Shown piece after piece: positions 1 through 12,911 of a stretch of DNA of 64,000 bases (positions within the stretch are counted from its first letter, which is position 1; every line of letters starts with the position of its first letter). Source of the stretch: an uncultured Acidobacteriota bacterium (GTDB lineage Bacteria > Acidobacteriota > Thermoanaerobaculia > UBA5066); NCBI GenBank assembly GCA_963779415.1, contig CAVZYA010000001.1:1152001-1216000 (forward strand), written 5' to 3'. The position numbers and the translations under genes are program-made. The notes beneath the pieces were generated by a model. That model was not told where the DNA came from. It did no database searches and saw only the letters and a list, made by a program, of their open reading frames with translations.

Positions 1-356
1 TCCACCGTGTTTGGCCACCGTGACCCCCGCCCCGGCCACGACGAGCGCCGTCGCCGTCGAGATGTTGAAGGTCAGGAGGCCGTCCCCGCCCGTCCCGCAG
101 ACGTCGACGGCGCTCCGGGCGAGAGCCTCGTCGACGGGCGGACGGCGCGAGCGGTCCCGGAGAACGTCCACGAGCCCCGCGACGTCCTCGGCGGCCTCTC
201 GCCGCGCGCCGCGAGGGCCGCGACGAACGCCGCCGCGAGGGCCCCCGGCTCGGGCCCGTCGAAGAGATCCTCGAACGCCCCGCGAGACTCCTCGCGCGAG
301 AGGTGACCGCCGCGCGTCACGGCACGGAGCGCCTCCCGAAGCCTCTCGCCGCTCAC
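1..356 (-). CDS. trpD: Anthranilate phosphoribosyltransferase, 5' part (runs off the left edge; apparent frameshifts)
   Basis: GTG at 356 overlaps the trpG stop. N-terminus [26 protein letters not shown]; another frame gives [15 protein letters not shown], the TrpD glycine-rich motif. Confidence 0.88.
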
Positions 357-920
357 GCGACCCCCCGCTCCACGAAGTTCCGGAGAAGCCTCTCTCCATC
401 CGGCGTCAGGATCGACTCCGGGTGGAACTGGACGCCGGCGAGGGGACGGCTCCGGTGGACGAGCCCCATGACGAGGCCGTCCGCCTCGGCCGTGAGGACG
501 AGGTCGGGCGGAACGGAGGAGCGCTCGACGACGAGCGAGTGGTACCGCGTCGCCGTGAAGGGGTTCGGGAGGCCGCGAGAAGATCCCGGTGCCGGAGTGC
601 GCGATCTCCGATGTCTTGCCGTGCATCAGGACGGGGGCGCGGACGACCCGGCCGCCGAAGACGAGGCCGAGGGCCTGATGGCCGAGGCAGACGCCGAGGA
701 GCGGGATCCGGTCGTTCCTCTCGATCAGCGCGCAGGAGACGCCGGCGTCCTCCGGCCGGCCCGGGCCCGGCGAAATGACGATCCGGTCGGGGCGCATCGC
801 GAGGAGGGCGTCGGCCGAGGCCGTGTCGTTCCTGAGGACGCGGACGTCGCCGTCCACCCGCGCGAGGAACTGCACGAGGTTGAACGTGAACGAGTCGTAG
901 TTGTCGATGACGAGGATCAT
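353..920 (-). CDS. trpG: Anthranilate synthase component II, glutamine amidotransferase (one apparent frameshift near 575-580)
   Basis: [31 protein letters not shown] and MHGKTS in the 72..1769 frame; RYHSL and GVQFHPES continue in another frame. Confidence 0.93.
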
Positions 921-2318
921 CCGCCGAAGGCTCCGTACTCCGCCGCGGCGTCCACGGCGCGCATCAGCGCCCGCGCCTTGTTCTCGCACTCGTCCGCCTC
1001 GGCGGCGGGGACCGAGTCGGCCACGATGCCGGCCCCGGCCTGGATGTGGAGGACGCCGTTCACGACGACCGCCGTCCGGATGGCGATCGCCACGTCGAGG
1101 TTCCCGGCGAAATCGACGTACCCGACGGCCCCGCCGTAGGGGCCGCGCCGGACCGGCTCGAGCGCCTCGATGATCTCCATCGCCCGGATCTTCGGCGCGC
1201 CCGACAGGGTCCCCGCCGGGAACGTCGCCGCGAGGGCGTCCACGGCGTCCCGTCCCGGCGCGAGCGACCCGACGACGCGGGAGGCAAGGTGCATGACGTG
1301 CGAGTAGCGCTCGACGGAGAAGAACTCCTTCACCGTGACGCTCCCCGGGACGGCGACCCGCCCCACGTCGTTGCGGCCTAGGTCGACGAGCATGACGTGC
1401 TCGGCGCGCTCCTTCTCGTCCGCGAGAAGCTCGCGCTCCAGGGCGAGATCTTCCTCGCGCGTGGCGCCGCGCGGGCGCGTTCCCGCGAGCGGGATCGTCT
1501 CCACCTCGGCCGGGCCTTCCCGCCGCCGGACGCGGACGAGCCTCTCCGGGGAGGCTCCGAAGATCGTCCCGTGCGGCGTCCGGAGAAAATACTGGTAGGG
1601 CGACGGGCTGATCCGGCGGAGCGCGCGGTAGAGAGCGAACGGGTCGCCGGTAAACGGCGCCGACCAGCGCCGCGAGAGGACGACCTGGAAGATGTCGCCC
1701 GCCCGGATGTGCTCTTTCGCCTCCTCGACCGCCGCCATGTAGTCGGCGCGCGGAAGGCTCTCGGTCCACGCCATCTCGGGCCCCGCGCGGCGTGAAGAGA
1801 CCGCCGGTGCCTCTGAGAGAAGGGAATCAGCGAGTTGGCCCAGACGCTCCCGCGACTCGGCCTGGCTCGGCGGGTGGAACTCGCGCAAGGAAGAGCAGCC
1901 GGTGCTTGACGTGGTCGAAGGCGATGACGTCGTCGAAGAGTCCGAACCATCCGTCCGGAAGGCCGACGGGATCGGGGTTCTTCGAGGGGAGCCGCTCCAG
2001 CCGCCGGACGGCGTCGTAGCCGAGATAGCCGACGGCGCCTCCCGTGAAAGGGGGGTCGTCCTCTCCCCGCGGGAGCGGCTCGTGCGGAACCGTCTTGAGC
2101 GCGGCGAAGGGATCCCCTCCCGCCGCCGGGAGCGACGCCGACGGCGCCGTTCCGAGGAACGACCAGCGTCCCAGCCGCTCGCCCCCTTCGACCGACTCGA
2201 GAAGAAAGCAGGGCTCCGCTCGTGAGAGGAGCGCGCGCATCACGGCCACGGGCGTCGTCATGTCGGCCGGCCGCTCCACCGAGACGAGGAGCCGCGAGGC
2301 GGCCGCCGCGGGCGTCAC
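917..2318 (-). CDS. trpE: Anthranilate synthase component I (apparent frameshift near 1888)
   Basis: N-terminal [19 protein letters not shown] and [12 protein letters not shown] (1827..3263 frame); C-terminal [57 protein letters not shown] (917..1888). Confidence 0.93.
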
Positions 2319-3745
2319 GCCGGCCTCTGCTCGCCCCGGCGCTCGCGGAGCTTCCGCTCGACGTCGGAGGGCGAGAGGCCGCGCGCGGTCAGGAGCACCG
2401 CGAGATGGTAGAGGAGGTCCGCCGCCTCTCCCGCGAGGGCGCCGTCGTCCTCGACGAGGGCGGCGAGCGCCGTTTCGACCCCCTCCTCGCCGACCTTCTT
2501 CGCGATCCTCGCGATCCCCGCGTCGAGGAGATGGTTCGTGTACGAGCCGGCGACCGGATTCTTCTGCCGGTCCGCCACGATGGAGAAGAGCGGCCCGAGG
2601 TCGAGCGCGGGTGCGGCCGCCGCGGCGTCGAGCGTCCGGGCGACGCGGAAGCACGAGCGGCTCCCCGTGTGACAGGCCGGCCCCTCGGGAACGACGTCGT
2701 AGACGACGGCGTCGCCGTCGCAGTCGACCGAGATCGAGGCGACCCGCTGGACGTTCCCCGACGTCTCCCCCTTCTTCCAGAGCTTCTTGCGCGAACGGCT
2801 GAAGAAATGCGAGAAGCCGGTCGTCCGCGTCAGCTCCAGCGCTTCCTCGCTGGCCCAGGCGAGCGTCAGCACCTCTCCGTTCCGGACGTCCCGGACCACG
2901 ACGGGGACGAGCCCGGCCTCGTCGAACGTGACGGGAAGCGGGCCCGCCGCCTCCGGGGCCGGCGCCACGCCGCCGAGACGGACGGGGATCCCCGCCGAGG
3001 AGAGGGCCTGCTTCACCTCGCCGATCGTGAAGACGCGCTCGTGGAAGACCCCCGCGGCGAGGACCGCGTCGGCCCCCCCGTCGCGAACCGCCGCCACGAA
3101 GTGCGCGAGCTTTCCGGCGCCGCCGGAGGCGACGATCGGCACGTCGGCCGCGCTCCGGACGGCGCGCAGCATCTCGACGTCGAATCCTTCCCGTGTCCCG
3201 TCCGCGTCGACGGAGGTGAGGAGGATCTCCCCCGCCCCGAGCGACGCCGCCTCGGCCGCCCACTCGACGACGCCGCGCCCCGTGATCCGCCGGCCGCCGT
3301 GCGTCGTGACGACGAGCCGCACGGCGCCCCCGTCACCGCGGACTCTCTTGCCGTCGAGCGCGAGGACGACGCACTGCGCCCCGAACTGCTCCGAGAGGCG
3401 CCGGATCAGCTCCGGCTCGGCGGCGGCCGCCGTGTTGACCGTCACGCGGTCGGCTCCCGCCTTCAGGAGCGAGTCGGCGTCCTCGACCGACCGGACCCCG
3501 CCTCCGACCGTGAAGGGGATCGAGAGGACCTCGGCCACGCGGGAGACGAGCGAGACGAGCGTCCCGCGGTTCTCGTGCGCCGCGGCGATGTCCAGGAACG
3601 TCAGCTCGTCGGCCCCTTCGGCCTCGTACCGCACCGCCGCCTCGACGGGGTCTCCCTCGTCGCGGAAGTCGACGAACCGCGTCCCTTTGACGACCCGCCC
3701 CGCCGCCACGTCGAGACAGGGGATCACCCGGACCGCCAGCGTCAT
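2315..3745 (-). CDS. hisF: Trifunctional HisF-HisI-HisE fusion (IGP synthase cyclase + PR-AMP cyclohydrolase + PR-ATP pyrophosphatase)
   Basis: One 476-aa frame carries [18 protein letters not shown] and [15 protein letters not shown] (HisF), [22 protein letters not shown] and ACHTG (HisI), and KKVGEE and EAADLLYH (HisE). Confidence 0.92.
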
Positions 3746-4503
3746 CGCGTCCTCCCTTCCGCGGCGAGAGCGGCCGAGAGCCGCGTCACGCTCGTCGCCC
3801 CGAGGTGCAGGGCCCTGCCGAAGATCGCCCCTCGCGCGCCTCCGGCAAGGGCCGCGTCCACCGGAGAGAGGTCTTCCTCGCCGCGCATCCCGCCCGAGGC
3901 GAGGATCTCTCCGGGAAAGACCGCGCGGACCGAGGCGAGAAGCTCGAGGTTCGGCCCCTCCATCGCCCCGTCGCGTGCCACGTCGGTGACGAGGAGCGCC
4001 GTGACGCCCAGAGAAGAAAGCTCCTTCGCGACGGATACCGCATTTCCCGCACCGGCGTCCCGAGTCCAGCCGGAGGTCGTGGGCCGGCCGTCCTTGCAGT
4101 CCAGCGCCACGACGAATCGGGCGGAAGAAAATCTTCTTAGAAGGGTAAGAAAGACCGTCCGGTCGAGAAACGGCAGGCTGCCGAGAACGACCCGGTCGCC
4201 CCTCTTCCTTTCAAAGAAATCCTCGACGGCCTTTTCCGTGCGCAGTCCTCCCCCGACTTGAACCGGAATTCCCGCTCTTTCGACAATCTTGAGGATCACC
4301 GTCCGGTTCTCCCCCCGGCCGAAGGCCGCGTCGAGGTCCACGACGTGGATCCCGTCGGCCCCTTCGCTCTCGAAACGCCGGGCCGCCTCCACCGGGTCGA
4401 CATCGTAGACCGTCGTCTTCTCGAGGTCGCCCCGGAGCAGACGGACGACGCGCCCCTCCTTCAGGTCGAGGGACGGCCAGAGCGCGAGGCGGTCCGCGCT
4501 CAC
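3742..4503 (-). CDS. hisA: ProFAR isomerase
   Basis: [47 protein letters not shown]; GTG start overlaps the hisH stop. Confidence 0.95.
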
Positions 4504-5117
4504 ACGGGCTCCGGAGCGAGGAAGTTCCGGAGGAGCTTCCGCCCCGCGTCGGAAGACTTCTCGGGATGGAACTGGCACCCCCAGACGTTCCCGCATTGGA
4601 TGGCGGCCGGGAAGGAACCGCCGTACTCGCACGTCGCGGCGACGTCCTCGGGGTCGACCCCCTCCGGGCGGTACGAGTGGACGAAGTAGACGTACGTTCC
4701 GGACGGGACGCCGGAGAGGAGCCCGCCCTCCCTCGCGACGTCGAGCGCGTTCCAGCCGACGTGCGGTATCCGGACGCCTCCGCCGAAAGGAACGATCCGC
4801 CCTCGCACGACGCCGAGGCCGGGTGTCTTTCCGTGCTCCTCGCTCTCGTCGAAGAGGAGCTGGAAGCCGAGGCAGAGTCCGAGGAGGCGCGAGCCGTTCC
4901 GGACGGCTTCGAGGAGCGCCGAGTCGAGGCCGGTCTCCTCGAGCCGTTTGCGGGCCGGGCCGAACGCGCCGACGCCGGGAAGGACGATCCGGCCCGCGGA
5001 CGCGACGTGCGCCGGATCCGCCGTCAGGAGCACCTCCGCCCCGAGGCGCCGGAAGGCGCGCGTCACGGAGGCGATGTTTCCCACGCCGTAGTCGACGAGC
5101 GTCACGGAGTCCGTCAT
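4500..5117 (-). CDS. hisH: Imidazole glycerol phosphate synthase glutaminase subunit
   Basis: VDYGVGNIASV, LPGVGAFG, GLCLGFQ, PHVGWN, YFVHSY, QFHPEKS. Confidence 0.95.
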   Translation of the reverse strand: MTDSVTLVDYGVGNIASVTRAFRRLGAEVLLTADPAHVASAGRIVLPGVGAFGPARKRLEETGLDSALLEAVRNGSRLLGLCLGFQLLFDESEEHGKTPGLGVVRGRIVPFGGGVRIPHVGWNALDVAREGGLLSGVPSGTYVYFVHSYRPEGVDPEDVAATCEYGGSFPAAIQCGNVWGCQFHPEKSSDAGRKLLRNFLAPEPV

Positions 5118-5710
5118 GCCGTCAGCGTCCCTTTCGTCGAGAGGATCCCGGTCCCCGTCCGCTCCGCGGCGATCCGGAGGGCCCGCGCCGCCGACTTGAA
5201 GACCGCCTCGGCCGCGTGGTGGCCGTTTCTTGCCCGGATCACGTCGACGTGCAGGTTCAGCTTTCCGCGAAAGGCCGCGGACTTCCAGAACTCCTCGACG
5301 AGGGCGAAGGGGAACTCCTTCGTCACGAGGAGGAGCTCCTTGTCGACCGGCGACTCGAAGACGAGGAACGGGCGCCCGGAGAGGTCGACGACGGATCGCG
5401 CGAGCGCCTCGTCGAGAGGGACCGTGCACTCGCCGAACCGCTCGATCCCCGCCCGGTCGCCGAGGGCCGTCGCGAGCGCGTCCCCGAACGCGAGCCCCAC
5501 GTCCTCGACGGTGTGGTGCGCGTCGACGTGCGTGTCGCCCGTCGCGCGGACGAAAAGGTCGAATCGTCCGTGCTTCGCGACCGCCTCCAGCATGTGCGAG
5601 AGAAACCCGACGGGCGTCTCGACGTCCGCCTTTCCCGTCCCGTCGAGCTCGAGCTCGAGCGTGACCGACGTCTCCTTCGTCGTCCGCGAGACCTTTCCGA
5701 CCCGGCTCAT
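5114..5710 (-). CDS. hisB: Imidazoleglycerol-phosphate dehydratase
   Basis: RTTKET, FLSHML, DAHHTVEDVG, PLDEAL, NGHHAAEAVFK, STKGTL. Confidence 0.96.
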   Translation of the reverse strand: MSRVGKVSRTTKETSVTLELELDGTGKADVETPVGFLSHMLEAVAKHGRFDLFVRATGDTHVDAHHTVEDVGLAFGDALATALGDRAGIERFGECTVPLDEALARSVVDLSGRPFLVFESPVDKELLLVTKEFPFALVEEFWKSAAFRGKLNLHVDVIRARNGHHAAEAVFKSAARALRIAAERTGTGILSTKGTLTA

Positions 5711-6792
5711 CGCTCCTCCTTCCTCCGGACGATCTCCCGGAGCTCCGCGAGGAAGAGGTCATTCTCCTCGCGCCGCCCGACCGTGACGCGGAGCCTTCCC
5801 GGCGCGGACGGTCCGAGGTCGCGGACGAGGATCCCCCGCCCGAGAAGCTCCTTCCCCACCCGCTCCGCCTCGCCTCCCGGCGGCTCGACGAAGAGAAAGT
5901 TCCCCGCGGCGGGCGCCACCTTCGCGCCCATCCGCGAAAGCTCGCCGGCGACCCGGTCCCGCTCCCGGACGATCTCGGCGACGCGCGCACGCGCCGGCGC
6001 CGGATTCTCGAGAAGGGCGACGGCCAGCTCCTCCGCCGCCTGGTCGACGCTGAACGGGAGGACCGCCTTTCCGACTTCCCGGGCGAGGTCGGGACGGGCG
6101 ACGGCGTACCCGATCCGGAAGCCGGCGGCCGAGAAGGCCTTCGAGAAGGTCCGGAAGACGACGACGTTCTTCCCTTCGTCGACGAGCGGAAGAGCGCTCG
6201 CCTCCGCGGGGGCGAAATCGACGTACGCCTGGTCGACGAGAGCGACCGGAAAGGCGTCTGCGAGCTTTCGTAGGAACGGGAGTCCGGCCGCCGTCCCGGT
6301 CGGGTTGTTCGGCGAGCAGATCAGCGGGACCGTCCGCGGCGGCTCTCCGGCCGTTCGGAGGATCGCGGCCTCGTCGAACGCGAACTCGTCCCCCACGAGC
6401 GGGACCGTGACGACGTCGGCCTGCGCGATGGCGGCGAGCTGCGGGTAGAGCGAGAAGGTCGGCGGAGTCAGGAGGAGCCGCCCTCCCCCGGCGAAGACGT
6501 TGATCGCGGCGAGGACGATCTCGCCCGATCCGTTCCCGACGACGATCTCCTCCGGGCTTCGCCCGAGCAGGGCCGCGATCGCGCTCCGGAGCCTCCCCGA
6601 CCCGAACTCCGGATAGAGCGCCCAGCGCCGCCCCTTGAGCCGCGCGAGGACCTTCTCCTTCACCTCGTCCGGGACGTCGAAGGGCGATTCGTTGAAGTCC
6701 AGCTTCGCGCGGACCGGCACGGGAAGATCGGAGACGAGCGCGTAAGACTTCAGCGCCGCGATGCCGGGACGGGCCGGAGTTCCCGCCGTCAC
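5707..6792 (-). CDS. hisC: Histidinol-phosphate aminotransferase
   Basis: KLDFNESP, GNGSGE, CSPNNPTG, DQAYVDF, RTFSKAFSAAGFRIGY; start inferred at the GTG overlapping the hisD stop. Confidence 0.93.
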   Translation of the reverse strand: MTAGTPARPGIAALKSYALVSDLPVPVRAKLDFNESPFDVPDEVKEKVLARLKGRRWALYPEFGSGRLRSAIAALLGRSPEEIVVGNGSGEIVLAAINVFAGGGRLLLTPPTFSLYPQLAAIAQADVVTVPLVGDEFAFDEAAILRTAGEPPRTVPLICSPNNPTGTAAGLPFLRKLADAFPVALVDQAYVDFAPAEASALPLVDEGKNVVVFRTFSKAFSAAGFRIGYAVARPDLAREVGKAVLPFSVDQAAEELAVALLENPAPARARVAEIVRERDRVAGELSRMGAKVAPAAGNFLFVEPPGGEAERVGKELLGRGILVRDLGPSAPGRLRVTVGRREENDLFLAELREIVRRKEER

Positions 6793-8075
6793 GAGAGCCT
6801 CCGCCCCGCGGAACGTTCGTGCGCGACGAGCCCCTCGAACCGGGCCAGCGTGGCCGCCGCCGGGCCGAGCCGACGCGCCGCGCCCGGCGGGACCTCGACG
6901 CTCCGCCCCCATCGGAAGAAGTCGCGGACCGAGAGCCCCGAGAAGCTCCGCCCCGCGCCTCCCGTCGGGAGAACGTGGTTCGGGCCCGCCACGTAGTCAC
7001 CGAACGCCGTCGGCGTCGAAGAGCCGACGAAGAGCGCTCCGGCCGTGGGAAGCAGCGCGCGGGCGAGCTTCTCCGCCGGCTTTCCCATCACCTGAACGTG
7101 CTCGGCGGCGACGTCGACGCCCGCGGAGACGGCCTCTCCGAGTCCGGAGAAGACGACGATGCGTCCTCTCTTCCGGAGGGACGCCCGGATGACGGAGCGG
7201 ACGGATCCCGCTTCGAAGGCTCCGACCTGCGTGACGACTTCCCGCGCGACCGCCTTCGCGAGCCTCTCCGAGTCCGTGAAGAGGAGCCCGATCGCGTCCG
7301 GGTCGTGCTCGGCCTGCGCGAGGAGGTCCGCGGCCACGAGGTCGGCGCGGGCGTCTCCGGAGGCGACGACGAGGACTTCGGACGGGCCGGCGGGAAGATC
7401 CACCGACACAAGCCCCGAGACGAGGTGCTTGGCCGCCGCGACCCACCGGCTGCCGGGGCCGACGATCTTCGCGCAGCCGGCCACCGAGACGAGCCCCGCG
7501 ATCCCGTGGGCGCCCCCCGCGAGGAGCACCTCGCGGATTCCGAGCTCTCGAAGCGCCCACCGGAGCTCCGCGCTCCCGAGGTAGGCGCGCGGCGGCGTCG
7601 CGACGACGATTCTCTGGACGCCCGCCACCTGTGCGGGGACGACCCCCATCAGGAGCGACGAGGGATAGAAGGCGCGCCCGCCGGGGACGTAGACCCCGAC
7701 CGAGTCGAGAGGGAAGGGCTTCTCGACGAACCGGACGCCGAGCGCGTCCCGGAAGGAGAACCCCCGCGGAATCTGGCGCCGGTGGTACGTCTCGATCCGT
7801 CGCCGCGCCAGCCGGAAGGCGCGGACGAATGAGCGGTCGACCGCCAGGGACGGACCGAGAGAGGGATCGACGAGGATCTTCTTAGAAGGAAGAGAGACCC
7901 CATCGAATCTATGGACGAACTTCGCGAGAGCCCCTCTTCCCCTTCTAAGAATCTCTTCAACTATCGGTAGGACTTCGCGCAGCGTTCGAAAATCGACTTC
8001 GCCGCGCCGTCCCGCAAGAAGCCGTTCCAGCTCTTTTCTTCCCTTCACGGTTCTTGCGTCGACGATCTTCAGCAT
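6789..8075 (-). CDS. hisD: Histidinol dehydrogenase
   Basis: VGVYVPGGRAFYPSS, KIVGPG, DLPAGPSEV, DLLAQAEHD, GDYVAGPNHVLPT. Confidence 0.96.
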   Translation of the reverse strand: MLKIVDARTVKGRKELERLLAGRRGEVDFRTLREVLPIVEEILRRGRGALAKFVHRFDGVSLPSKKILVDPSLGPSLAVDRSFVRAFRLARRRIETYHRRQIPRGFSFRDALGVRFVEKPFPLDSVGVYVPGGRAFYPSSLLMGVVPAQVAGVQRIVVATPPRAYLGSAELRWALRELGIREVLLAGGAHGIAGLVSVAGCAKIVGPGSRWVAAAKHLVSGLVSVDLPAGPSEVLVVASGDARADLVAADLLAQAEHDPDAIGLLFTDSERLAKAVAREVVTQVGAFEAGSVRSVIRASLRKRGRIVVFSGLGEAVSAGVDVAAEHVQVMGKPAEKLARALLPTAGALFVGSSTPTAFGDYVAGPNHVLPTGGAGRSFSGLSVRDFFRWGRSVEVPPGAARRLGPAAATLARFEGLVAHERSAGRRLS

Positions 8076-9697
8076 GCCTCCCCCACGGCGGCCCGGAGGC
8101 GCCGGACGAGATCCGCGACCTCTTCGCGGCGGGAGACGAGGGCCGCGCGCCCGGCGATCAGGACGGCCCGGCTCCTCGCGATCGTTTCGATCTCCGTAAG
8201 GCCGTTCGCGGCCATCGTGGAGCCGGTCTCGATCAGGTCGACGACGGCGTCCGTCAGGCGAAGGGCGGCCGCCAGCTCGACGGAGCCCGCGAGCGGGACG
8301 ATCTCGAACGGGACCTTCCGCGCGTCGAAGAAGCGGGCGGCCGACCGGCGGTACTTCGTCCCGACGCGGATCGGGTGCCCGTTCGGGCGGGGCGGATCCC
8401 CCGTACGGCCGATGAGCGAGAGGCGACAGACGCCGAAGGGGAACTCCATCGGCGAGAAGACCTCCTCGCCCGACTCTTCGACGCGGTCGCTTCCGACGAT
8501 CCCGAGGTCGGCGCCGCCGTGGGCGACGTAGGTCGGGACGTCGTCGTCCTTCAGGAGGAGAAGCTCGACCCGCCCGGAGAGGTCGGCGAGGACGAGCCGC
8601 CGGCCGTCCGGCTCCGGAAGCTCCACGCCCGCGGTGCGCAGCACGCCGAGCGCCTCCGGCAGGAGCCGCCCCTTCCCTACGGCGAGACGGAGCGGCCTCC
8701 GCGCGCCCGGGCTCTCCGGCCCCGCGAGAGCCGTCGAGAGCGCTTCGAGGCCGACACAGAAGCCGAGAGCCGGCATCGGCGCGCCGAAGCGGCCGAGGAG
8801 GCCGTCGTACCGTCCCCCCGAAGCCAGAGGCGCCGCGCCGTCCGCGGCGTCGATCGCGAACGTGATGCCGGTGTAGTAGGGGGCCTCCGGAGTTCCGGCG
8901 AGGTCGACGACCACGGAGATCCCGGGGCGCGCCGCTCGTACCGCGGCTCCCGCGCGGAGGAGCGCCTCCGCCCCTTCGCGGAGGACCGGCGCGCCGAAGA
9001 GCGGCGAGGCGGGATCGAATCCGGAAAGGAGCGACCGGGCGATCTCGGCCGCTCGATCGCGGGTCGCGCCCGCTTCGAAGAGACGCTTCTCGACCGAGCT
9101 GACGCGCCGCGCCCGCGCTTCTTCCTCGGCAGCCCCGAGCGAGGCCCCATCCCCGCGGGCGAGGGCCGGAGCCGTGGCCGCGAGGAGCGACGGGAGAAGC
9201 CCCGCGAAGCCGAGCGTCACATGGAGCCGCTCAGTCGGGATCTCTGCGAGGCAATCGAGCGCGAGGGCGAGCATCGTTTCGTCCGCCGTGAACGACGGGT
9301 CGCCGTACCGTTCGGCCCCCACCTGCGCGAACTCGCGGGCCCGGCCGACGCCGCTCGGCTCGTCCCGGACGACGTCGCCGCGATAGAAGAGGGAAAGCGG
9401 AAACGCATCGGGCGAGAGGCGAGGCGCCACGACGCGGGCCGCCATCGGCGTGAAGTCGGCCCGAAGCGAGAGAGTCTGCCCCTCCCGGTCGAGGAACCGG
9501 TAGAGGCGCTCGTCCCCCTCGGCCGTGACGCCCCGGTAGGGGTCGGCGTAGTCGAGGACCGGAAGGATCACCTCCGCGAGGCCCGCCGCGACGAGGCGCG
9601 AGACGACCGCGTCTTCCGCCTTTCGACGGCGCGCGGCCGCCTCGAAAAGGAAGGCCGAGACGCCGCGCGGGAGATTCGGATCGGGGGAGGGGCTCAT
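8069..9697 (-). CDS. hisZ: Fused ATP phosphoribosyltransferase regulatory subunit HisZ + short-form HisG
   Basis: N-terminal LPRGV, LRADFT, REFAQVGAE, YYTGITF, SGGRYDGL (HisZ) continue in frame into LAVGKGRL, DDVPTYV, DLGIVGSD, GTKY, GSVELA, VDLIETGSTMAANGL (short HisG). ATG at 9697 overlaps the aroE stop. Confidence 0.9.
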   Translation of the reverse strand: MSPSPDPNLPRGVSAFLFEAAARRRKAEDAVVSRLVAAGLAEVILPVLDYADPYRGVTAEGDERLYRFLDREGQTLSLRADFTPMAARVVAPRLSPDAFPLSLFYRGDVVRDEPSGVGRAREFAQVGAERYGDPSFTADETMLALALDCLAEIPTERLHVTLGFAGLLPSLLAATAPALARGDGASLGAAEEEARARRVSSVEKRLFEAGATRDRAAEIARSLLSGFDPASPLFGAPVLREGAEALLRAGAAVRAARPGISVVVDLAGTPEAPYYTGITFAIDAADGAAPLASGGRYDGLLGRFGAPMPALGFCVGLEALSTALAGPESPGARRPLRLAVGKGRLLPEALGVLRTAGVELPEPDGRRLVLADLSGRVELLLLKDDDVPTYVAHGGADLGIVGSDRVEESGEEVFSPMEFPFGVCRLSLIGRTGDPPRPNGHPIRVGTKYRRSAARFFDARKVPFEIVPLAGSVELAAALRLTDAVVDLIETGSTMAANGLTEIETIARSRAVLIAGRAALVSRREEVADLVRRLRAAVGEAC

Positions 9698-11207
9698 CTC
9701 GTCGCTCCGGTGGCTGAGGGTGGCGCCGAGGCGAAGAGACCCCGTTTCCGTGCGGGAAGCCGGGAGACGAGGTCCGCCGCGGAGACGGACCGCCCGGTGA
9801 AGAGCGCCGCCTGTCCGGCCGCCTGCGCGAGAAGGAACGTAAAGCCGTCCACGACCTCGCACCCCGCCGCGCGCGCCGCGCGAGCGAGCGCCGTCCCTCC
9901 TTCCCGGTACGGCGCGTCGACGACGAGGAGGCCGGGGACCAGAATCGAAGCCTCGCAGGGGAGCGGGTCGTCGGCGCCGAGACCCAGCGGTGTCGCGTTG
10001 ACGAGAACCCGGGGAGAGACCCCCGGGAGATTCTCTGAATGGAATACAGAACCCGAGCGGACCGCGAAAGCCTCTCCCTTCTCGCGATCGCGCGTGCTCA
10101 CGAAGACCTCGTACCGCTTCTTTCGGAGAATTCCGACGGCGATCCGAGCCGTCCCTCCGGCTCCGAGGACGAGGGCACGTTCTCCCTCTTTCGCAGAGGG
10201 AATCAACTCGTCCAGCGCCTCGCCGTCCGTGTTCTCCCCGCGGACGGCGTCCTTTCCTTCGAAGAGAAGCGTGTTCATCGGCTCGCGTCGCGCCGGCGAT
10301 CGCGGCGGCTTCTTCCTTGAACGGGATCGTCACGGACGCCCCCGAGAGGGGAAGCCTGAGGCGAGCGAGGCCGTCGCGAAGGGCCGGCAGCTCGTTCACG
10401 AGTGAGCGGAGGGCGAAGGGAACGTAGAGGGCCTCCTCGTCGAGGGCCTCGAAGTTCGCGTTCTGGAGGGCGGGCGAGAAGCGAGTGGGAGACACGCGAG
10501 CCGAGGAGGGCGACGAGACGAGAGGCGCGTCGCGCCCGGCCCACGCCGTAGACGTCGCGGAGGTCCCGCGCCTGAAGCTGTCCCGGCGCCGTGGCGCCGC
10601 CCGGCACGATCGAGGCGAACATCAGCGGGGCGCCGAAATAAGGAGCGAGAACTCGCGTGGCTATCCCGGCCTCTCCCATGCCGAAGAGGGAGACGTTCGA
10701 TCCCTCGAACGATTTCTGGGCTTCGAGAAGGCGGACGGCGTCGTTCGAGTCGTTTGCCGTCCCGACGACCTTCACGTATCGGGCGCCGGTCGCGGCCATC
10801 CGCTCGGCGAGGCCGGCGACGTCGGGCGGAAGCCCTTCGAGATCGTGGACGGAGACGACGACCTTCGAGGGAGCGAGGCCCATGAGGTCGGCGTTCGTTC
10901 CGGCCCGGTACTCCACGTCCGACGAAGTCGAAGCCCGCCGCGAGCGCCTTCGAGAGGAGCGATCGGGCCTCTTCGGCGCTCCCCGAGAAACCGCCCCCCT
11001 CCGCCGTCGACCGGAGAGTGGCGACCAGGGTCTTCCCTTCGAAGCACGCGCGCAGCGCGCCGAAGTCTCCCGGTTCCCGGAGGGCGTCGAGCCGGACCTC
11101 GACGGCGGTCGAGGTCTCTCGCGAATGCCGCCGCCTCGCGGGCCTCCGCCATCGAGGAAGGCCCGAACGGAGCCGACGATCCGCGTCTTTTCCGCGCTCA
11201 GGACCAA
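9694..11207 (-). CDS. aroE: Bifunctional type I 3-dehydroquinate dehydratase / shikimate dehydrogenase (AroD-AroE), several apparent frameshifts
   Basis: Pieces across frames: VEVRLD, ATLRS..EGG, VVSVHD, MGEAG..TRVL, TAPGQL (type I DHQase) running in frame into LLGSRVSHSL; then SVTIPFK, NTDG, LGAGGTAR, VNATPLG (AroE). Confidence 0.85.
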
Positions 11208-11236
11208 ACGAAAACCCCCTCCGGTCCGGAGGGGGT
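11206..11236 (-). terminator. Attenuator terminator hairpin, which also contains the likely RBS of aroD-aroE
   Basis: Minus-strand RNA ACCCCCUCCG-GAC-CGGAGGGGGU followed by UUUCGUUU; perfect 10-bp stem with GGAGG in the 3' arm. Confidence 0.8.
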
Positions 11237-11306
11237 CGAAGTCGCTGCTTCTGGCCTTCGCGCCCTCCGGACAACTCCCTGTCCGGCGGCGAGAACGCCC
11301 GCCGGC

Positions 11307-11342
11307 TCAGTTGTGGTGACCGTGCCAGTGAAGAGCCAGCAT
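11307..11342 (-). CDS. His/Trp-rich attenuator leader peptide MLALHWHGHHN
   Basis: Read directly as ATG CTG GCT CTT CAC TGG CAC GGT CAC CAC AAC TGA: 4 His and 1 Trp codons, upstream of an aro-his-trp operon and followed by alternative hairpins. Confidence 0.85.
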   Translation of the reverse strand: MLALHWHGHHN

Positions 11343-11351
11343 GAGACGCGA

Positions 11352-11377
11352 ATTGAAACCCGCCCGGGGGAGCGCTG

Positions 11378-11381
<4 letters not shown>
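11352..11381 (-). promoter_or_regulatory. Putative sigma70 promoter of the leader and aro-his-trp operon
   Basis: Perfect TTGACA (11381-11376, overlapping the cysS stop), 18-nt spacer, weak -10 TTCAAT, 9 nt before the leader ATG. Confidence 0.55.
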
Positions 11382-12834
<1,453 letters not shown>

Positions 12835-12911
12835 GACGGGCGATTCTCGACGACCGCTGCGGATTTCGCCAGCGAGCGTGCGGAAAGCGGCCTTCGGGTT
12901 CTGCGATACCC

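Follow-up and report, generated by a model that had tools for sequence, protein, structure and literature searches.

The window analysed here, a stretch of 64,000 nucleotides from the genome of an uncultured Thermoanaerobaculia bacterium (Acidobacteriota), carries on its minus strand, between cysS and a long operon of shikimate-pathway, histidine and tryptophan genes (aro-his-trp), what is probably a transcription attenuator of the ribosome-mediated kind, in which one leader peptide would respond to two amino acids, His and Trp. Its sequence elements are present and conserved in relatives, the helices that they can form are mutually exclusive, and the codons of its short open reading frame (ORF) match the genes that follow. 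An earlier note on this DNA had claimed an unannotated ORF at 11342-11307 with four His codons and one Trp codon, followed by five RNA segments, A to E, with alternative pairings; the ORF reads as described, the arms lie at the places named, and the ORF and all four helices recur in each of the 19 loci of the family compared below. Reading the minus strand from 11600 to 11000, we place the features as follows.

11381-11376, minus strand: -35-like box TTGACA, a putative promoter element that overlaps the cysS stop codon
11380-11378, minus strand: cysS stop codon TGA, within the TTGACA box
11357-11352, minus strand: weak, putative -10-like hexamer, 18 nt past the -35 box and 9 nt ahead of the ATG
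11342-11307, minus strand: leader ORF MLALHWHGHHN, 11 codons plus TGA (ATG 11342-11340, TGA 11309-11307)
11340-11333, minus strand: segment 0, within the ORF, which in the minimum-free-energy (MFE) fold pairs, when no ribosome is present, with the stop codon and the start of A (11308-11301)
11330-11328, 11324-11322, 11318-11316 and 11315-11313, minus strand: the leader His codons
11327-11325, minus strand: the leader Trp codon, six codons ahead of the stop
11305-11296, minus strand: segment A, beginning 2 nt past the stop; partner B
11291-11280, minus strand: segment B; partner A or C
11273-11261, minus strand: segment C; partner B (anti-antiterminator) or D (antiterminator)
11237-11224, minus strand: segment D, 5' arm of the terminator; alternative partner C
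11223-11213, minus strand: segment E, 3' arm of the terminator, holding GGAGG (11222-11218), the likely ribosome-binding site of aroDE
11214-11206, minus strand: T-rich terminator tail, which ends on the two T of the aroDE start codon
11207-11205, minus strand: aroDE start codon TTG, conserved in relatives together with the residues that follow

Codons 5-10 of the leader ORF are His, Trp, His, Gly, His and His, which account for all four His and the one Trp of the peptide. The 9 nt preceding the leader ATG hold no purine-rich Shine-Dalgarno sequence, and from this and from the spacing between box and ATG the leader mRNA is probably leaderless or nearly so. A search with the DNA of 11150-11420 matched 21 of the 24 other genomes of the same family (10 genera) and 0 of the 16 genomes of two sister families; it returned 20 loci, the window's own included, of which one, cut by a contig end, was left out and 19 cover the whole region. 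These loci were found by DNA similarity alone, and all 19 keep the leader ORF in a common pattern of His or another residue, Trp, His, any residue, His, His, any residue and stop. The Trp codon is invariant (19/19; 5/19 have two Trp codons), and His stands at codon -7 from the stop in 13/19, at -5 in 18/19, at -3 in 18/19 and at -2 in 19/19. Upstream, the first five bases of the -35 box are invariant across the 19 aligned loci, and a hexamer of the T..A.T type occupies the same place in relatives as the -10-like hexamer of the window. The check proposed in the earlier note, an alignment of relatives for conserved codons and stems, thus came out in favour of both.

A wider scan of 185,579 species genomes with a degenerate pattern, which is uninformative on the constancy of Trp because the motif was required, gave 48 loci, 47 of them in metagenome-assembled genomes (MAGs) titled Thermoanaerobaculia, Holophagales or Acidobacteriota; the single match in Nostoc lacks the ORF and was taken as chance. 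The leaders of relatives carry one, two or three Trp codons, and one variant has three Trp and four His. Over 51 distinct leaders, the start codon falls 36 or 39 nt past the first base of the -35 box in 49, and the offset of the Trp codon from the box is divisible by three in 49; the stop codon is TGA in 24, TAG in 20 and TAA in 7, and the His codons are CAC in 151 cases and CAT in 31. The use of synonymous His codons, the three types of stop and the occurrence of insertions and deletions in threes therefore argue for a translated frame, and it is from these marks in the sequence that we infer translation of the leader ORF.

Behind the ORF, the helices of the window have predicted energies of -17.4 (A:B), -22.2 (B:C), -24.0 (C:D) and -18.5 kcal/mol (D:E). 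The whole leader stretch of 156 nt has an MFE of -80.2 kcal/mol (z = -3.45), and 0 of 200 dinucleotide shuffles were as stable. The D:E hairpin, which the earlier note had called a terminator with GGAGG in its 3' arm, was recovered as such by a terminator scan at 11237-11213, with a stem of 11 pairs (8 GC) and a loop of 3 followed by the T-rich tail. Per-sequence folds, made piecewise, give an A:B hairpin in 19/19 loci (-14.4 to -24.3 kcal/mol, with 0-5 unpaired nt between stop and helix), an extended B:C hairpin in 19/19 (-14.5 to -28.3 kcal/mol) and a C:D duplex in 19/19 (-14.0 to -27.3 kcal/mol); the terminator hairpin could be isolated in 18/19 (-11.3 to -19.4 kcal/mol), the automatic pick in the remaining locus, L007, being irregular (-8.6). 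In the 19-row alignment the two alternative states are about equally well kept, with 86.0% of cells paired for A:B plus C:D (ON) and 86.4% for B:C plus D:E (OFF), compared with 33-61% for slid controls; C:D has 92.8% of its cells paired and four pairs altered on both sides. The RNAalifold consensus of a 46-row alignment is B:C plus the terminator, with compensatory pairs in B:C. In that alignment 35 rows have CG and 11 have UA at the B-C pair 39-61, and at the C-D pair 61-102 there are 30 with GC, 11 with AU and 5 with GU, so that one substitution can be traced through the three segments B, C and D. Because sequence-only alignments misregister A:B (76.7% of cells paired in the 19-row and 62.1% in the 46-row alignment), this helix was judged from the per-sequence folds. 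Pairing of segment 0 with A, which would complete a classical six-segment layout, was predicted in only 8/19 family loci and was set aside as lineage-specific.

The position of the ribosome was modelled through an energy gap, obtained for each of the 19 sequences by subtracting the energy of the most stable fold that contains the terminator from that of the most stable fold that lacks it. With A free in the window, A:B plus C:D (-41.4 kcal/mol) is level with B:C plus D:E (-40.7 kcal/mol), and with A masked the choice lies between C:D alone (-24.0) and B:C plus D:E (-40.7 kcal/mol). The mean gap is +1.7 kcal/mol with Trp in the A site of the ribosome, +8.1 with the last His, +10.4 with the stop and +7.7 with no ribosome; when the ribosome moves from Trp to the stop, 19/19 sequences shift toward the terminator, by amounts of 2.6-13.7 kcal/mol. 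The constrained folds thus agree in direction with the earlier note's proposal that a ribosome at the stop masks A and turns the operon off while a stall upstream turns it on. Along the ORF the minimum of the gap (1.4-2.7) extends over codons -8 to -3, and at -2 the value rises to 8.1. This low stretch coincides with the run His, Trp, His, any residue, His (codons -7 to -3), so that codons for both amino acids lie inside the modelled stall window and the last His codon lies outside it.

What the leader precedes was established from relatives, because the genes of the window contain frame changes; two clean genomes, one of the same genus and one of another, were annotated with Pfam. The gene order is cysS, the leader, aroD-aroE, hisZ-hisG, hisD, hisC, hisB, hisH, hisA, hisF-hisIE, trpE, trpG, trpD, trpC-trpF, trpB, trpA; the operon spans about 15 kb of tightly packed genes and is identical in order in 7/7 family loci fetched. 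By tblastn with the relatives' proteins, the window keeps this order up to trpD, which runs off its end. The merged aro-his-trp operon of the earlier note is therefore as claimed, with aroD-aroE and all the his and trp genes. The 53-nt gap between hisIE and trpE (2314-2262) has a GGAG before the trpE ATG and contains no short ORF and no terminator, and the minus strand of 1-12000 holds no strong terminator-like site other than that of the leader; the trp genes are thus without an attenuator of their own.

If the leader senses both amino acids, its codons should follow its cargo, and across the class they do. HisG was detected in 77 of 121 sampled class genomes, and 20 loci around HisG were taken and their genes ordered by tblastn; leaders were screened for in the 450-600 nt upstream as short ORFs with at least three His or Trp in a span of 7 or 8, the presence of both not being demanded. 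Outside the family, merged aroDE-his-trp operons were met at 10 loci in five further families, and 9/10 have leaders with both Trp and His, in peptides that cannot be aligned with that of the window. A HisZ-based search added 51 loci (titled Candidatus Multivorans and relatives); aroDE precedes hisZ in 49 of them, and a short ORF containing both Trp and His is present at 45 of the 49. Every leader scored ahead of a merged aroDE-his(-trp) operon holds both Trp and His. Separate operons have leaders of another kind. Seven loci of the first batch start with hisZ and have no aroDE or trp genes within 20 kb, and 7/7 have His-run leaders, six of them without Trp; a second batch has 16 further his-first loci (three cut short), 15 with leaders, 14 of these without Trp, and four merged loci of that batch (L166, L169, L173 and L178), cut at a contig or locus edge, were left unscored. 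His-first loci thus total 22 leaders in 23 loci, 20 of them His-only and two, from one genus, with a single Trp; trpE lies elsewhere in these genomes. Two aroDE-trpE units have leaders with two or three Trp and no His. In the 450-600 nt upstream no leader candidate was found at the merged locus L092 (none in 500 nt), the his-first locus L170, the f8 and f16 loci or the trpE-first locus L096. Dual sensing would predict such tracking of cargo by codon content, which a His-only reading would not, and the dual-sensing idea of the earlier note has here a further, independent line of support.

The strongest competitor, an ordinary His-only attenuator in which Trp is kept for RNA pairing or for peptide context and brings no response to tryptophan, is on this evidence unlikely. 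In its favour, the window has four His codons to one Trp codon, sensitivity is tied to the number of regulatory codons in classical attenuator modelling (PMC1183508), and two his-first leaders with no trp genes nearby also hold one Trp. Against this stand the invariance of Trp in the family and its doubling or tripling in relatives, the presence of Trp along with His in the merged-operon leaders of five other families whose peptides do not align, the absence of Trp from 20/22 his-first leaders, the place of the Trp codon inside the modelled effective window and the want of any separate attenuator for the trp genes.

The dual attenuator would work as follows, in a mechanism whose transcription start, translated ORF, termination and response to each amino acid we infer from the elements above. 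Transcription would start at about the leader ATG and yield a leaderless mRNA. When charged tRNA-His and tRNA-Trp are plentiful, the ribosome would reach the stop and cover segment A; B would then pair with C, D would be left free to form the D:E terminator, and transcription would stop before aroDE, with the aroDE ribosome-binding site buried in the D:E hairpin of any transcript that escaped. When His or Trp is short, the ribosome would stall 3 to 8 codons before the stop, leaving A free to capture B; with A:B formed, C would pair with D once D is made, E could not form the terminator, and polymerase would read through into aroDE, the nine his genes (several of them fused) and the trp genes. 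Either shortage alone would turn on the whole operon, which amounts to an OR gate. With no ribosome on the transcript, in the window and its nearest relatives, the first codons of the ORF would pair with the stop and A, and this too would lead to termination.

A number of points weigh against this reading. The modelled position effects depend on an assumed ribosome footprint of 13 nt, counted from the A site's first base. The fold comparison with and without A masked, suggested in the earlier note, went only partly its way: the energy gaps shift as predicted, but the plain MFE structure does not change. Under a ribosome mask the MFE fold of the full transcript is mostly the terminator at any position (in the window, at every position), and that of a transcript cut before E is mostly the antiterminator at any position (again every position in the window); masked MFE folding was for this insensitivity dropped as the deciding test in favour of the constrained energy gaps. 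The near-level energies with A free explain why plain MFE folds fail to switch. With the ribosome on Trp, the terminator form of the window is still better by 5.5 kcal/mol. Since equilibrium folds do not switch, read-through must rest on the order of folding, with C:D forming before E is made; such kinetic formation is plausible. As for covariation, the 11 covarying rows belong to one subfamily and may represent a single event, so that it stands on few events, and counts of pairs or pair types are not above those of shuffled alignments (18/500 and 192/500 in the 19-row alignment, 309/500 and 427/500 in the 46-row alignment). The carriers met are MAG records of related genomes, and the counts overstate their independence. 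The perfect TTGACA claimed upstream is there, at 11381-11376, but a consensus promoter scan found no full sigma-70 site at the leader, the -10 being only weakly consensus-like; the promoter call therefore rests on the conserved -35 box and its spacing. With a single Trp codon beside four for His, Trp sensing in the window could be weak. Two sets of loci fit the cargo rule poorly: in the his-first leaders of L078 and L162 (genomes G131 and G089, from a single genus) one Trp codon stands with five or six His codons, and at L099 and L100 (genomes G065 and G131) aroDE, a hisZ-like gene and trp genes lie behind a leader with three Trp and His. Finally, among the sequencing runs matched to this stretch no RNA run is listed, and the DNA runs have shares of at most 0.14.

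The hisZ-like gene of L099 and L100 is 29-30% identical to the HisZ part, and a normal hisZ occurs in a separate his operon; its place between aroDE and trpE may be left over from the splitting or fusing of operons. Of the 121 sampled genomes of the class, 44 gave no HisG, including 12/14 of sister family f2 and 3/3 of f3, and 120 of the 121 pass a bar of at least 90% completeness and at most 5% contamination, which hints at histidine auxotrophy in the f2 and f3 lineages.

Alternatively, control might act for the most part on translation: the D:E hairpin would hide the aroDE ribosome-binding site, with little or no termination. GGAGG does form part of the hairpin's 3' arm, with the TTG directly at the tail, and attenuator variants that sequester such sites are known (PMC9413887). 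We regard this as improbable, as the hairpin, with its 11 pairs (8 GC) and T-rich tail, is a typical intrinsic terminator, the tail is conserved across the family, and control of aroDE only would not obviously reach 15 kb downstream; the two modes are in any case compatible, and both would be expected together. Less probable still is that the peptide itself is the sensor, with a nascent chain arrested by the free amino acid in the manner of tnaC and the codons playing no part. The Trp is indeed fixed six codons from the stop in 19/19 loci and the C-terminal motif is conserved, but across families the leaders share only their content of Trp and His and differ in order and spacing, His-only and Trp-only versions follow the cargo of the operon, and switching on biosynthesis calls for the sensing of shortage, not of excess. 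That the ORF is a chance frame of no regulatory role in front of a cysS terminator is hardly credible: a hairpin some 140 nt past cysS could terminate the cysS transcript, and the high-GC DNA of the window has open frames in abundance, but the conservation of the ORF has coding signatures, the antiterminator and the upstream helices are conserved too, one relative (L018) keeps box and ORF although its cysS stop lies further upstream, and analogous leaders precede his operons that do not adjoin cysS.

Attenuation by leader peptide is textbook knowledge that comes from work on single pathways in enterobacteria. By its sequence the dual attenuator of the window would work like the enterobacterial his and trp attenuators and falls outside their Rfam families: a cmscan of 10800-11800 at E values up to 10 gave six weak, unrelated matches and no His leader (RF00514), Trp leader (presumably RF00513) or T-box. 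Like the his leader of Salmonella and Escherichia coli (hisL, RF00514), it combines a short His ORF with a chain of alternative helices and an intrinsic terminator, and there too a ribosome at the stop leads to termination and a stall upstream to read-through. The Salmonella his leader has six segments and five helices, a layout that the window matches if segment 0 is counted. Unlike hisL, with its run of seven His, the leader here has four His interleaved with Trp, lacks a Shine-Dalgarno sequence and is probably leaderless, and its cargo adds trp and aroDE; moreover, a stall would leave A free and would not mask a first arm in most relatives (segment 0 in 8/19). Multivalent leaders exist in enterobacteria, namely thr (Thr and Ile codons) and ilv (Ile, Leu and Val codons), and these likewise carry codons for several amino acids and allow several shortages to derepress one operon. 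The amino acids of thr and ilv belong to one branched pathway, whereas the two sensed here would be separate end products that match a fused operon; to our knowledge, His and Trp are linked only through phosphoribosyl pyrophosphate (PRPP) and the operon's shikimate-pathway gene. Histidine and aromatic genes also share one transcription unit in the aromatic supraoperon of Bacillus subtilis, where hisC lies among aro and trp genes under TRAP control; there, however, a Trp-binding protein acts on the RNA and a single his gene is included, and here the agent would be a leader peptide.

The trp leader of E. coli and other proteobacteria (trpL) likewise has Trp codons shortly before the stop and a ribosome whose position sets terminator or antiterminator (PMC1183508); the leader described here differs in having one Trp codon where trpL has two, four helices where trpL has three, and added His codons. 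Leaders of ilv with mixed codons are reported from Actinobacteria (PMC1262725). Leaderless polycysteine short ORFs of mycobacteria are described as Cys-responsive attenuators in a preprint (bioRxiv 10.1101/834739), and they resemble the leader proposed here in standing where the transcript begins, in having no Shine-Dalgarno sequence and in controlling an operon by amino-acid supply; phylum and amino acid are different, and here a classical chain of terminator and antiterminator follows the ORF. Full-text literature searches, whose scope was article text as distinct from supplements and older comparative papers in subscription journals, gave no His/Trp hybrid leader, nor did passages of PMC4833913 and PMC9413887. 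The combination of His and Trp thus appears to be new as far as the searched literature shows.

With rather less assurance than we place in the dual attenuator itself, we are inclined to see across the class one leaderless attenuator chassis, re-addressed by its codon content as operons fuse and split, with His-only leaders on his operons, Trp-only leaders on aroDE-trpE units and mixed leaders on aroDE-his-trp operons, the last acting as two-input OR gates. If this is true, an OR gate of 11 codons co-regulates two amino-acid pathways and a step of the shikimate pathway, and its evolution can be read from genomes. Two unrelated end products would be served by one, apparently leaderless, leader in a poorly studied and largely uncultured class of Acidobacteriota. 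The class would offer a natural experiment, in that one design carries His-only, Trp-only or mixed leaders depending on what the operon contains, and it opens the questions of how codons are gained and lost when operons merge and how few of them suffice for sensing. For annotation, the element points to a small ORF that had been missed and to the actual regulatory unit of a 15-kb operon.

The genes of the operon in the window, as placed by tblastn, include the following.

11207-1, minus strand: the controlled operon within the window, from aroDE to trpD, continuing in relatives to trpA
11207-9694, minus strand: aroD-aroE fusion
~9673-8069, minus strand: hisZ-hisG fusion
3745-2315, minus strand: hisF-hisIE fusion
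2261-917, minus strand: trpE

Four gene fusions occur in this one operon according to Pfam (aroD-aroE, hisZ-hisG, hisF-hisIE and trpC-trpF; window 11207-2315, relatives L069 and L071), and the members of two of them, hisZ with hisG and hisF with hisIE, give separate matches in other families of the class. Frame changes in 1-12900 of the window, counted by tblastn, number one in cysS, three in aroDE and one each in trpE, trpG and trpD, and 0 in the seven his genes; the source genome is in 3 contigs and 92% complete. These changes, unevenly spread across the genes, are probably insertions and deletions of long-read assembly, and the leader sequence agrees with that of relatives despite the frame changes in neighbouring genes. 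In relatives L069-L075 trpA is followed, ahead of a RodZ-like gene, by a conserved ORF that encodes about 250 residues and matches nothing in Pfam.

The same design may recur in this genome. Its full sequence was scanned without regard to gene function for a -35 box followed after 34-41 nt by a Met codon, an ORF of 6-35 codons in which a single residue fills at least three of six positions, and a terminator within 170 nt; the scan gave 3 matches, the His/Trp leader among them. One of the others (L182, contig C1 at about 1048366, minus strand) is a Thr-rich ORF of 26 codons, 38 nt past a -35-like box and followed by a terminator-like hairpin; downstream lie asd, an aspartokinase with ACT domains and dapB, and on its sequence the element is a candidate attenuator of the aspartate family. 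The second (L183, contig C2 at about 1422701, minus strand) is an ORF of 33 codons with four Met in seven codons, the same -35-like spacing and a terminator-like hairpin; it precedes a gene for a pyridoxal-phosphate (PLP) enzyme of Cys/Met metabolism and is a candidate Met attenuator.

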